Shown one piece after another: positions 57,038 to 61,699 of a stretch of DNA of 64,000 bases. Within the stretch, counting starts at the first letter, position 1; the number at the start of each line of letters is the position of its first letter. The position numbers and the translations under genes were made by a program. Source of the stretch: Escherichia phage Eryne; sequence record PQ529420; one strand, written 5' to 3'. Under the pieces are notes generated by a model. That model worked only from the letters and a program-made list of their open reading frames with translations, was not told the origin of the DNA and made no database searches.

Positions 57038-57397
57038 ATGTGTGTTCCTCTTAGCAGTCCACTGCTGTTAGAATTTTACAAAGCATGGATGGAAGATCAT
57101 TCCTCAATGCATCGTGAGAATGTTGGTTTGTGTAATTGCCTTATGGATTACCTGGCAACCACTATGTCAAAGAAAAAACCTACGGAAGAAGATATAGAAT
57201 ATTTCAAGATGGTTCGTAGCAAAACGCTGGAAGAGATGAAACTGCAATTCACGTGTGCTGGGCTATCCTCCTTCCTACCCTTTAATTATGATCTTCTGTG
57301 TTATGAAGATGAAGGTAAGACACATTCTTGCCATACCAACCCAAAGAGATTGCAGTGGGTGAAAGATCGTATTGCCGATTCATGCAAGGGTGTGTAG
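57038..57397 (+). CDS. Cys/His-motif paralog family member 1
   Basis: Start at Met with AAAGGAG SD; conserved L.EFYKAW, GLC.CL.DY, FTCAGL, LPFN, CHTN, RLQWVKDRI. Confidence 0.55.
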   Translation: MCVPLSSPLLLEFYKAWMEDHSSMHRENVGLCNCLMDYLATTMSKKKPTEEDIEYFKMVRSKTLEEMKLQFTCAGLSSFLPFNYDLLCYEDEGKTHSCHTNPKRLQWVKDRIADSCKGV

Positions 57398-57398
57398 A

Positions 57399-57554
57399 AT
57401 GTTGGAATTGATTGGGATAGTTTGGTTAATGATAAAAGCAGGTTTCGTCGGTTTCGGACTTCTTATAATTTTGTGTATGTTCCTTAGTGCAATACAGGCA
57501 TTCTTTTATCTGCTAGGTAGAATACTTAAGTTAGGAGGTGATCATGAAAAGTAA
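57399..57554 (+). CDS. small membrane protein
   Basis: ~51 aa, hydrophobic (MLELIGIVWLMIKAGFVGFGLLIILCMFLSAIQAFFYLLG). Confidence 0.4.
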   Translation: MLELIGIVWLMIKAGFVGFGLLIILCMFLSAIQAFFYLLGRILKLGGDHEK

Positions 57555-57912
57555 TATTCCGTTGAGTAGTGCAGCTTTAATACGATTCTATAAAGCATGG
57601 ATTGCCAACCATCCTGCAATGAATCGCACAACGAGTGGCTTATGTGGTTGTCTGGTAGATTATGTAGATGATTTTGTTGGTGAGGTAACTAGAGAAGAAG
57701 ATAAAAGATGGCGTGATCGTTTGTTGGATAGTTTGAAATACGAAATGAGGAAACAATTTACATGTGCAGGACTGGACTACAATCTTCCGTTCAATGCAGA
57801 TTGCATGGATTACCTTTCAGAGTGTATAGACTTGGCGTGTCATACCAACACGTTACGTCTTCAATGGGTGAAAGACAGAATCGAAGATGCAAATAATGCT
57901 TGCATTGAATAG
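57544..57912 (+). CDS. Cys/His-motif paralog family member 2
   Basis: ATG after GGAGGTG SD; same conserved motifs as 57038-57397. Confidence 0.55.
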   Translation: MKSNIPLSSAALIRFYKAWIANHPAMNRTTSGLCGCLVDYVDDFVGEVTREEDKRWRDRLLDSLKYEMRKQFTCAGLDYNLPFNADCMDYLSECIDLACHTNTLRLQWVKDRIEDANNACIE

Positions 57913-57983
57913 AAATGCCTGTACACTGTGTTCCATAAAATATGCAATATCGCGCATAACAAAACTACTAATGAGAGGTGTAA

Positions 57984-58442
57984 ATGAAAACTGTATCTTT
58001 GTATCTTGCTAACACGGAGCGTGTACATAATCTTGTAAAAGAATGCGGTGTGAGTGTTCAATTTAACATAGGAACGCCTTCCGTGGTGACAGGCAGTGAG
58101 ATGTGTGTTATTGATTTCATCAATGAATATTTTCGTGGGAAGCCTATTGCTCGTCACTTCATTCGAGAAATGCGAGATGTACAACAGGATTATGAATTCT
58201 ACCCAGAAATTTGTGAACGCTATGAAACGATTCTTAGTTCTGTAGAAGATCCAGATACCAGTGAAACAGGTGTTTCCCACTTGCTGTGGATGTTGAATGA
58301 AATTCAGGATGGGTGTAATGGTATGTCTGAAACCAAACGCCATCGTTGGTTAGGCTATATTCAGGGTGTTATGGTTATGAAAAACCTTATTACAGTGAAT
58401 GATGAACGTAATGCTACACGCCCCGTCTTTAATGGAGCATAA
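57984..58442 (+). CDS. hypothetical protein
   Basis: 152 aa; SD GAGAGGTG. Confidence 0.55.
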   Translation: MKTVSLYLANTERVHNLVKECGVSVQFNIGTPSVVTGSEMCVIDFINEYFRGKPIARHFIREMRDVQQDYEFYPEICERYETILSSVEDPDTSETGVSHLLWMLNEIQDGCNGMSETKRHRWLGYIQGVMVMKNLITVNDERNATRPVFNGA

Positions 58443-58443
58443 C

Positions 58444-58659
58444 ATGAAAAGCATTCAGGTGTGTATTGAAAATAATTGTGGTTATCTGGGGTTGACACAC
58501 GTTGCTTTCCCTCTTATGTTAGATGCCGATATCGCTTACAGTGGAGTTGCTTATGTGTCATTCAAGACAATGAGCCAAGTACCTGGCTGGAAGTGGGAAG
58601 TAGTTGATGTTGTTGAAGGAGAAGACTATGTTTTCCTTCCACACGAATATACTGTTTAA
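58444..58659 (+). CDS. hypothetical protein
   Basis: Start at Met (MKSIQVCIENN) with GGAG SD. Confidence 0.45.
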   Translation: MKSIQVCIENNCGYLGLTHVAFPLMLDADIAYSGVAYVSFKTMSQVPGWKWEVVDVVEGEDYVFLPHEYTV

Positions 58660-58674
58660 AAAGAGGAAAAGAAG

Positions 58675-58851
58675 ATGGATAAACAAACTACTGTGTACTT
58701 AGTAACAAAGAATACCCCAGGCTGGAGCCAATGCAGCACTGTACCTTACAAAATCTGTGCAACATTAGAACTAGCACAACGTGCAGAAGCAGAAGTGAAT
58801 GCCATGCAATACAGCTATGGTGAAATCATTCCGTTTACCCTTGAACAATAA
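58675..58851 (+). CDS. small protein (untracked, approximate)
   Basis: ~58 aa MDKQTTVYLVTKNTPGWSQC...; SD AAGAGGAAAAG. Confidence 0.4.
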   Translation: MDKQTTVYLVTKNTPGWSQCSTVPYKICATLELAQRAEAEVNAMQYSYGEIIPFTLEQ

Positions 58852-59827: not shown

Positions 59828-59836
59828 GGAGAAGTC

Positions 59837-60205
59837 ATGCAAGAGAATAGTAAAGTGTGTAGCATGAAAAGCAGCCCTTATTTGCTACAATTTTATGAGT
59901 GGTGGTTAGAACAAGAAGATACAAACTTTAGTAAAAAGCATTATGGTCTTTGCACGTGTCTTGTAGACTTCTTATACAATATTGCTTTGATAAAAGATGT
60001 TGAGAATGTAGCAAAGCTCCAATCCTCTGTACGAGAGGAAATGAAGGAACAATTTAAGAAAGCGGGTTTGAACCATTTACATCCGTTTAATACGGATTTC
60101 TCGCACTACTTTACGGAAACAGAACTAGGCATTGCACACCTTAATAAAGAACGTGTACAATGGGTGATTGATCGTATTCGTGATATGGAGGAATACAATG
60201 GTTAA
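59837..60205 (+). CDS. Cys/His-motif paralog family member 3
   Basis: 122 aa; SD AAGGAG; shares LLQFY, GLCTCLVDF, HPFN, RVQWVIDRI. Confidence 0.55.
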   Translation: MQENSKVCSMKSSPYLLQFYEWWLEQEDTNFSKKHYGLCTCLVDFLYNIALIKDVENVAKLQSSVREEMKEQFKKAGLNHLHPFNTDFSHYFTETELGIAHLNKERVQWVIDRIRDMEEYNG

Positions 60206-60407
60206 GTTTAAAACTTTCTGTGCAATCACTGTTTGTCTTATTCTTGCATACGTGTTATTCTCTAGTATCATTCGTTTAGGTGAGTATATGGCAAGAGAAG
60301 CTCGTGAAAGTGAAGCTAAAAAAGAACAGTGCATCGTGTTAAAGCACCAAAGGGATGCTGAAAAATTTCTTGAACAGGATTGTGGGCGCTATGTGAATTA
60401 TAATTAG
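60198..60407 (+). CDS. small membrane-anchored protein
   Basis: Start at Met (MVKFKTFCAITVCLILAYVLF) with GGAGGAA SD. Confidence 0.45.
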   Translation: MVKFKTFCAITVCLILAYVLFSSIIRLGEYMAREARESEAKKEQCIVLKHQRDAEKFLEQDCGRYVNYN

Positions 60408-60416
60408 GAGGGAAGT

Positions 60417-60665
60417 ATGTTAGATATTTTTACCTTTGATCGTGTTGGTACACCGATTACCGAAGAAGAACGTACCAAAATTGAACAAGAATTGGATGCT
60501 TTACGTGCGTCTCTTACAGACACAGCCTCACTACAACGTGAAGCTGCACATCTCACAGAGATCACTGGTATTCAGTGGAGCACGGAGTGGGTTGTAATTA
60601 CAATTGAAGCGGATATTTGGGGACATGAAGAGACGCTACGTACCGGAGTAGTAACGGTTTGGTGA
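60417..60665 (+). CDS. hypothetical protein
   Basis: 82 aa; SD TAGGAGGGAAG. Confidence 0.5.
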   Translation: MLDIFTFDRVGTPITEEERTKIEQELDALRASLTDTASLQREAAHLTEITGIQWSTEWVVITIEADIWGHEETLRTGVVTVW

Positions 60666-60711
60666 TAGATGTTATTCTTTTGTGTTTCTTGATATATAAA
60701 TAGGAGGGTTT

Positions 60712-60936
60712 ATGGTAAAACGTCTGGAATGGGATGCGTGTACTGCTCACGCTTGTCACTGTGATATTGTTGAAGATCCTAATGGAGAGATGGTGTATTA
60801 TGAGGATTACGAAGCATTGCACAATGCTGTGATTGCTTTACTGGATGATATTAGCTCACGCTATCCAGGACAACAATTCACGTGTCCACATATCCAACTA
60901 TTAGCCGAACTTACGGAGTATCCAAGTGTTCCATAA
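60712..60936 (+). CDS. hypothetical protein
   Basis: 74 aa; SD AGGAGGG. Confidence 0.5.
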   Translation: MVKRLEWDACTAHACHCDIVEDPNGEMVYYEDYEALHNAVIALLDDISSRYPGQQFTCPHIQLLAELTEYPSVP

Positions 60937-61114
60937 TATGGGTGTCCCTGAACAACTGCTCTTTATTGTAGGATTAGTAGGCTTATTGGCGGCTGGCGCT
61001 AAAGCCGCTTCTCACACGCATCACATAATGTTAAGATTTCTATTCCTACTCCCTTCTATCCTCGTACTATTAGTCATACTGATCGATAACATTTTGCACA
61101 ATTAAGGAGAGGTT

Positions 61115-61699
61115 ATGAGTAAAATTATACCAAGCAGTTATGAATTATTACAGTTTTATGTGTATTATATAGACTGGGTTAGTAGATTGAATGTTAAAGA
61201 CAATGCGATGTTTAGTAAAAACATCTGTTTAACAGAAAGTATCTTCCGTTACTGGCACACAGGTAGAAAGTGTACACACAGTGAAGCTATGCGCATTGTA
61301 GGAGAATATCTGGAGCAATTGCAAAAAGCAGAGCTACCTGTCCTTCACCCATTCAATGAATCTAAAGAAGAATTAGAACAAGAGTGTAGAGAAGGTAAGT
61401 GCCATTTGAATGAAAAACGTATCGAATGGGTGAGGCAACGTTTAGCCGATGCAGGAAAGACTCCTAGTGACTCTGACTATACGTGGTATGATGTAGAGGG
61501 TTTAGTTCAAGGTTTTGAGGCTTGTGCTATAGATAATACCAACTTTGCCAAAGTTTTATGCGAGGCTTATGACCTGGCAGATAAAATCCGAAATCATGGA
61601 TGGAAACAAGAGCATAAAGAATCATATGAACGCCTTGACAAGATTTTCAAACAGATCTATTCTAACCACAAGAAGATGTTCCAAATGGAGGATGTGTAA
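61115..61699 (+). CDS. Cys/His-motif paralog family member 4 (divergent, longer)
   Basis: 194 aa; SD AAGGAGAGG; retains LLQFY, HPFN, RIEWVRQRLADA. Confidence 0.5.
   Translation: MSKIIPSSYELLQFYVYYIDWVSRLNVKDNAMFSKNICLTESIFRYWHTGRKCTHSEAMRIVGEYLEQLQKAELPVLHPFNESKEELEQECREGKCHLNEKRIEWVRQRLADAGKTPSDSDYTWYDVEGLVQGFEACAIDNTNFAKVLCEAYDLADKIRNHGWKQEHKESYERLDKIFKQIYSNHKKMFQMEDV

Follow-up and report, generated by a model that had tools for sequence, protein, structure and literature searches.

Four small genes of Escherichia phage Eryne, p1 to p4, encode diverged copies of one essentially phage-restricted protein domain, which structure prediction describes as an all-alpha unit of about 100-110 residues and six helices. 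They lie within a 4.9-kb stretch of the window analysed here, that is, the whole 64,000 nucleotides of this phage taken from sequence record PQ529420. In profile searches, the domain joins four clusters of the PHROGs database into a single superfamily of about 950 sequence clusters. We propose, with a confidence somewhat below even, that early in infection it binds a host component as a module without enzymatic activity, the paralogs diversifying its specificity.

The region is of the Justusliebigvirus (phi92-like) myovirus type, subfamily Stephanstirmvirinae. Many Escherichia myoviruses, among them Justusliebigvirus EmilieFrey/Bas61, PATM and phi92, match the 4.9-kb stretch at 94-98% identity; its nearest relative is phage Nernie, at 97.9% identity over 100% of the stretch. 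All its genes are annotated in the deposited records as 'hypothetical protein' or by cross-reference to other hypotheticals.

Four maintained paralogous genes

An earlier note on this DNA, made from the letters alone, had described four paralogous open reading frames (ORFs) at the positions listed in Table 1. They are indeed genes: their starts and ends agree with the gene calls of Nernie, and a strong Shine-Dalgarno sequence stands 5-7 nt before each of the four ATGs (for p1, AAGGAG 7 nt upstream). Against orthologs in four related genomes, spanning a divergence of only 1-5%, the ratio of nonsynonymous to synonymous polymorphism (pN/pS) is 0.08-0.25. Synonymous changes are in the majority, and p1-p4 are thus maintained protein-coding genes; p2 is the copy best conserved across the subfamily.

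The paralogy is significant both by blastp and by hidden Markov models (HMMs). In blastp, p1 shares 47% identity with p2 (E 1e-32) and 40% with p3 (E 5e-24), p2 shares 37% with p3 (E 8e-19), and p4 is 30-40% identical to the other three (E 4e-8 to 3e-6). An HMM built from 98 distant relatives finds p1-p4 at E 1e-23 to 2e-33 among the 622 six-frame ORFs of the window, the next match having E>1. A second HMM, built from p1-p4 themselves, retrieves exactly the same four ORFs; no fifth copy was found in the window with either model.

The earlier note had also listed ordered motifs (L..FY..W, GLC.CL, F..AGL, LPFN, CH.N and R.QWV.DRI). These stand in p1-p3, while p4 deviates, with Thr for the Cys of 'GLC', 'AEL' for 'AGL' and 'HPFN' for LPFN. 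This fourth protein combines a divergent family domain (residues ~7-116, without Cys39), a disordered linker and a three-helix C-terminal extension of 78 residues. The extension is limited to phi92-like phages, with matches in just 59 phage records (>=90% identity in 55), and gave no functional clue.

Table 1. Coordinates of the family genes and of neighbouring features in the window.
Feature	Coordinates	Strand	Product	pN/pS	Evidence and remarks
p1	57038..57397	+	119 aa, 7 Cys	0.17-0.25	ORF; Nernie gene call; family HMM E 2.5e-31
p2	57544..57912	+	122 aa, 7 Cys	0.08-0.17	ORF; AGGAGG Shine-Dalgarno; HMM E 2.5e-29
p3	59837..60205	+	122 aa, 3 Cys	0.12-0.18	ORF; phi92 annotation (Phi92_gp006); phrog_2510 E 9e-26
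p4	61115..61699	+	194 aa	0.11-0.20	Phi92_gp010 in phi92; phrog_27059 E 1e-138, phrog_2510 E 4e-17
Repeat-rich non-coding region	55300..57037	+			Directly 5' of p1; Fur-box-like palindromes
Fur-box-like palindrome TGATAATCATTATCA	56468-56482				7-1-7, perfect
Hydrophobic small ORF, like a protein with two transmembrane (TM) segments	57399..57554	+	51 aa		Between p1 and p2; annotated in Nernie

A superfamily split among PHROGs

An exhaustive profile search retrieved 949 clusters at E<=1e-3 and 273 at E<=1e-10 (both counted at the 50% identity level), as against only about 30 in a word-indexed search. All four paralogs match phrog_2510, at E 4e-17 to 9e-26. When 98 diverse members were compared with PHROGs, every one matched phrog_2510, 95 matched phrog_6418, 91 phrog_27059 and 44 phrog_2176. 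These four, to which p1-p4 belong, are automatic clusters labelled 'unknown function', with neither name nor structure nor literature attached; PHROGs breaks into at least four families what profile searches join as one. The sequences themselves are not new, being already clustered there and present in GenBank as hypotheticals. What is new, at the level of sequence profiles, is their union.

A typical member is a single-domain protein of 95-130 residues. Its signature, invariant or at least 90% conserved in sets of 98 to 198 sequences, comprises L16, F19, Y20, G37-L38, E68, Q72-F73, L78, P83-F84, N103, R106 and W109-V110; p3 is the reference for residue numbering here and throughout. All of these residues are found in p1-p3, and all but G37 in p4.

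The family could not be assigned to any known domain by eye in the earlier note, and systematic searches confirm this. Queries with p1-p4 found no family in Pfam, NCBIfam or PADLOC, the 98 relatives hit no recurrent Pfam family even at E<=1, and PDB sequence-profile searches with 4- and 98-sequence profiles returned nothing. In Pfam, PHROGs, NCBIfam, PADLOC and PDB folds, none of them a dedicated anti-defence HMM set, no homolog that is a characterised anti-defence inhibitor was found. Nor did functional data turn up in literature searches on the phage group, the PHROG identifier, Ea22, DUF551 or the representatives in BASEL.

Predicted fold and conservation

The AlphaFold2 model of p3, from a 31-sequence alignment, has six helices, with a predicted local distance difference test score (pLDDT) of 87 and a predicted template modelling score of 0.80. 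The N-terminal domain of p4 is modelled with the same helix pattern at pLDDT >90; its residues 119-123 fall below 50 and its C-terminal helices score 54-78. Fold searches of the PDB found no relative of the family model. In a viral structure library the matches are solely uncharacterised proteins, from Escherichia, Pectobacterium, Rhizobium, Achromobacter, Burkholderia, Klebsiella, Delftia and Shigella phages. By the searches run, this predicted fold lacks any counterpart that is solved or characterised.

Conserved hydrophobic residues recur at i, i+3/4 and i+7 on H1 (L16, F19, Y20, W23), H4 (M69, F73) and H6 (W109, V110, I114), a spacing that fits a core. Conserved polar and small residues fall mostly where helices begin or the chain turns: S12-S13 precede H1, G37-L38-C39-x-N41 opens H3, P83-F84-N85 lies in the loop between H4 and H5, and H101-x-N103-x-x-R106 opens H6. 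Between H3 and H4, the connecting segment (approximately residues 43-66) is unconserved and holds the indels. In the model, conservation thus outlines a scaffold, made of one face of H1, H4 and H6 plus capping and turn motifs, that carries a variable surface element. The proteins are soluble as judged by a negative grand average of hydropathy, and mildly acidic (median isoelectric point 5.5). DNA mimicry was considered and rejected on charge: at an isoelectric point of ~5.5 they are not highly charged.

Cysteine and histidine residues

The earlier note had read a conserved Cys/His pattern as a sign of zinc binding. We surveyed 198 domains aligned to the family profile, and only one cysteine proved conserved: Cys39 of 'GLC', at 97%, which is Thr in p4 and its orthologs. 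At position 41, where 'CxC' has its second Cys, Asn (61%) is commoner than Cys (19%); Cys75 and Cys95 are kept in 10% and 21%, and Cys100, which precedes the histidine, in 51%. His101 itself is present in 76%, its place being taken otherwise by Tyr (11%) and also by Arg, Phe or Ser, and it is unassociated with Cys100 (odds ratio 1.0). In the same segment, Asn103 is conserved at 90% and Arg106 at 100%.

A zinc finger has three to four Cys/His ligands kept family-wide, and such a set is absent here: once p4 is aligned via the family profile, the four paralogs have one His and zero Cys in common. Nor was there a recurrent match to any metal-binding family in Pfam with the 98 members, or any match in PDB profile and fold searches. 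Judged from the alignment, a Cys/His zinc site is a property neither of the family nor of all four paralogs, and zinc binding as a family-wide trait is refuted. In the Cys-rich p1/p2 clade, a metal site particular to that lineage is possible.

Distribution, copy number and recombination

The family is carried by phages of alpha-, beta- and gamma-proteobacteria. On plasmids the domain occurs in 1 of 72,556 records. A profile search of genome contigs with a sub-alignment found nothing, and the DNA of a P22-like cassette had no match in complete E. coli genomes.

The genomic context supports the placement of the family in the phage early/accessory region, as the earlier note had it. In Eryne, p1 is the first gene past a 1.7-kb non-coding region, and the genes after it are small, tightly packed and on a single strand. 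Phapecoctavirus phiWec179 has nine copies within 16 kb of its early region (19914-35745); the array starts directly past a non-coding gap, with three copies in tandem there. The relatives in N4-like phages are found between Gp1/Gp2, which are early genes, and the gene for the phage RNA polymerase, in one case as an adjacent pair. Two copies stand in tandem in an unrelated metagenomic phage, and single copies occur in T1-like and Avunavirus phages. Some polypeptides hold two or three tandem domains.

The copies do not evolve as fixed sets. The ortholog of p2 in phiWec179 is 98% identical, whereas the copies in the p1 slot are only 41-43% identical, and some phiWec179 copies have their closest counterparts (55%) in foreign phages and not among their own neighbours. 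One relative (P0002) is p1 with a p2-type C-terminal tail. Another, the metagenomic P0017, joins the family domain of p4 to the C-terminus of the ORF found at 63081-63524 of the window, which implies a deletion of ~1.9 kb. Together these two proteins indicate recombination within the cluster. Local duplication, recombination between copies, lateral exchange among unrelated phages and domain shuffling drive the evolution of the family.

No non-family gene was found to recur beside the domain across lineages. ORFs of 269 aa near family genes (N4-like loci; locus L007) were tried as a shared partner and rejected, since they are not homologous.

Two database observations belong here. The lone plasmid record is NZ_CP148392.1 (49174-49485), a 92.8-kb non-mobilizable E. 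coli replicon that is possibly a phage-plasmid. Four 'Campylobacter phage' records (A145, A110a, A150 and C3, host C. jejuni; MG065645, MG065689, MG065639 and MG065656) are 97.7% identical to 94% of the region, and are probably mislabelled or contaminant genomes.

Relation to known phage modules

The closest architectural link is to Ead/Ea22-like proteins (IPR025153; lambda Ea22). The family domain occurs as a central or C-terminal cassette in proteins whose flanks match the Ea22-type PHROGs 60, 660, 3323 and 5117, and in a P22-like Salmonella phage it lies inside an Ea22-like gene adjoining int. In lambda, ea22 belongs to the genes transcribed earliest, and the mosaic Ea22 proteins have interchangeable, 'portable' C-terminal domains (PMC10834534). 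The solved C-terminal domain of lambda Ea22 is a mixed alpha-beta dimer (PMC10834534), unlike the all-alpha fold predicted for our family. Ead/Ea22 proteins are recognised by an N-terminal segment and a long central coiled coil. Here p1-p4 differ: they are stand-alone domains without that scaffold and with no PDB sequence or fold match, and the flanking segments appear only in the distant members P0120-P0163.

A second partner is DUF551 (PF04448; e.g. YfdS), which is fused to family member P0067 (E 2e-8) and named in the annotation of phage Av-05. Both it and the family domain are portable modules of phage accessory regions. DUF551 is nevertheless a separate domain, constituting the other part of the fusion protein, and none of p1-p4 matches it. 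As functional clues the fusion partners yielded only DUF551 and Ea22-type segments, both of them uncharacterised. With the array and tandem arrangements described above, these cassettes add architectures not documented before.

In small size, early-region location, restriction to phages and variable copy number, the family resembles known small early proteins of anti-defence or host takeover such as Ocr, Acb2, Tad1/2 and Atd1. The anti-TIR factor Atd1 has been reported from Justusliebigvirus and Phapecoctavirus (PMC11724313). As an identity for p1-p4 it was rejected, because Atd1 is MazG-like and unrelated.

Proposed role and alternatives

The host-takeover or anti-defence role raised by the earlier note is plausible from genomic context. 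The domain would work early in infection as an accessory factor of host takeover or counter-defence, engaging a host component by binding and not by catalysis, and the paralogs would provide differing specificities or dosage. Zinc binding would be no part of the family mechanism. Catalysis and metal dependence are both disfavoured because p4, despite the Thr that replaces Cys39, is kept under purifying selection, and because His101 is Tyr, Arg, Phe or Ser in 24% of the domains.

Several observations weigh against this proposal. Orthologs show no diversifying selection and hence no arms-race signature, within the 1-5% divergence that the pN/pS values cover. That the family is nearly absent from plasmids speaks against a generic anti-restriction function shared with other mobile elements, and against anti-restriction factors of the commonest class. 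Literature searches yield no expression, interaction or phenotype data for any member. Finally, Arg106 (100%) and Tyr20, Glu68, Gln72 and Asn103 (each >=90%) are near-invariant across phages of all three proteobacterial classes, and such polar residues are also expected of an active site or ligand pocket.

This last point leads to the main rival, which we consider unlikely: a small enzyme, or a small-molecule or nucleotide 'sponge', whose polar residues form a site for a metabolite or immune signal common to proteobacterial hosts. Candidate residues are Cys39, Glu68, Gln72, Asn85, Tyr91, Glu94, His/Tyr101, Asn103 and Arg106. Their conservation is unusually strong for proteins that share 25-35% identity overall and come from phages with distant hosts: Arg106 is invariant, position 101 accepts His, Tyr, Phe and Arg, all able to stack on a ring, and the motifs are kept in every repeat of tandem-domain proteins. 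Yet some members that are maintained, p4 among them, have Thr, Val or Lys in place of Cys39, and many of the conserved polar positions are helix N-caps and turns, sites at which such residues are expected on structural grounds. Four to nine diverged copies per genome would be unusual for an enzyme or for the known sponges, and no fold likeness was seen to Acb2, Tad1/2, MazG-like or other known nucleotide-binding helical proteins. The replaceable Cys39 and His101, together with the multi-copy arrays, weaken this explanation.

It is improbable that p1-p4 bind zinc or another metal, with Cys/His coordinating a structural or regulatory ion at least in the p1/p2 lineage. There are seven Cys per ~120 residues in each of p1 and p2, and a C-x4-C-H arrangement is common to p2 and p4. 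Within the p1/p2 lineage Cys41, Cys75, Cys95 and Cys100 co-occur with Cys39 and His101 (CCCCCH, 10 sequences; Fisher p 1e-17 to 3e-6, not phylogeny-corrected). This co-occurrence is confined to close relatives of p1/p2, and is therefore not independent evidence for a metal site. The family-wide survey points the other way, with Cys39 alone retained, position 41 mostly Asn and Cys100 independent of His101. In addition, p3 has just three Cys and p4 lacks Cys39, yet all four paralogs are under purifying selection; the confidently predicted helical bundle, with its hydrophobic core, requires no metal; and no zinc-finger or metal-binding Pfam match recurs among the 98 members.

We regard as very unlikely a DNA-binding or transcription-regulatory helical domain that would reprogram early gene expression. 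Lastly, the notion that p1-p4 are spurious or decaying ORFs, alike only through recent DNA duplication and devoid of protein function, has as its sole support the lack of functional annotation in every record, and is refuted by a protein identity of just 27-48% among the paralogs (the duplications are therefore old), by purifying selection, by strong Shine-Dalgarno sequences for all four, and by 949 related clusters with a confident predicted fold.

Non-coding regions and neighbouring elements

Between 55265 and 56980 there is no ORF of >=70 aa, and 55300..57037 is presumed to be the promoter/operator region of the + strand early cluster. Its palindrome TGATAATCATTATCA agrees at 17 of 19 positions with the consensus of the 19-bp E. 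coli Fur box, and perfectly with the 7-1-7 consensus. Near-matches stand at 55514, 56663, 44417, 44440 and 45264, and all six Fur-box-like sites (6/6) fall in two long non-coding regions (55300-57000 and 43975-45456), against 0.93 expected by chance. The Fur-like core motif is kept 5' of the first paralog gene in EmilieFrey, PATM and phiWec179. These sites may be operators through which host Fur acts on the early promoters, or else an operator of the phage; nothing on them was found in literature searches.

Repeats abound in the region upstream of p1. A 37-nt module that includes the Fur-like core is present in three copies (56206, 56461, 56656); other elements are a triple repeat TAATCATTTCATACAGTAA with a 16-nt period (55880-55930), paired 18-nt repeats at 55731/55761 and a perfect inverted repeat of 15 nt whose arms lie at 55992 and 56123. 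A search of Rfam with 54-64 kb gave no match. The element AAAGGGGTGTG has three exact copies (44002, 56799, 56876), on the + strand only and confined to the two long non-coding regions, and may act as a promoter or regulatory element of the phage. By eye, about three copies of TTTGAAAATGAAAAGTTCAA are spaced by ~67 nt at 44220-44400, followed by palindromes AAATGAGAA...TTCTCATTT at 44415-44480. Near a switch of GC skew and gene orientation, these repeats and palindromes look like iterons or operators.

The 51-aa ORF between p1 and p2 does not belong to the family, and some relatives have it while others do not. It is absent in EmilieFrey and PATM, where the 3' end of p1 is replaced after nt 347. 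Protein P0032 carries a similar TM segment joined in frame to the N-terminal side of a family domain.

Implications

A reading that combines these elements would see a new fold and a new class of immediate-early effectors whose hypervariable H3-H4 hairpins, borne on a conserved scaffold and arrayed in up to nine copies per genome or in tandem, neutralise a panel of host or defence factors, with a metal or redox-sensing site gained in p1/p2 and possibly iron-linked expression through the Fur-box-like sites; as a whole we find it unlikely.

Whatever its target, the domain is shared by ~950 clusters and lacks a Pfam entry, a structure and a fold relative. In a much-used group of coliphages, therapeutic and model (phi92, phAPEC8 and BASEL Bas61), it comes first among the genes translated from the early region, and lambdoid and P22-like prophages have it as an exchangeable cassette of their Ea22 proteins. 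What looks like a Cys/His 'zinc' signature is lineage-specific and should not spread as an annotation. Once defined, the target would annotate many 'hypothetical' phage genes together, and could expose a new mechanism of host takeover or counter-defence.

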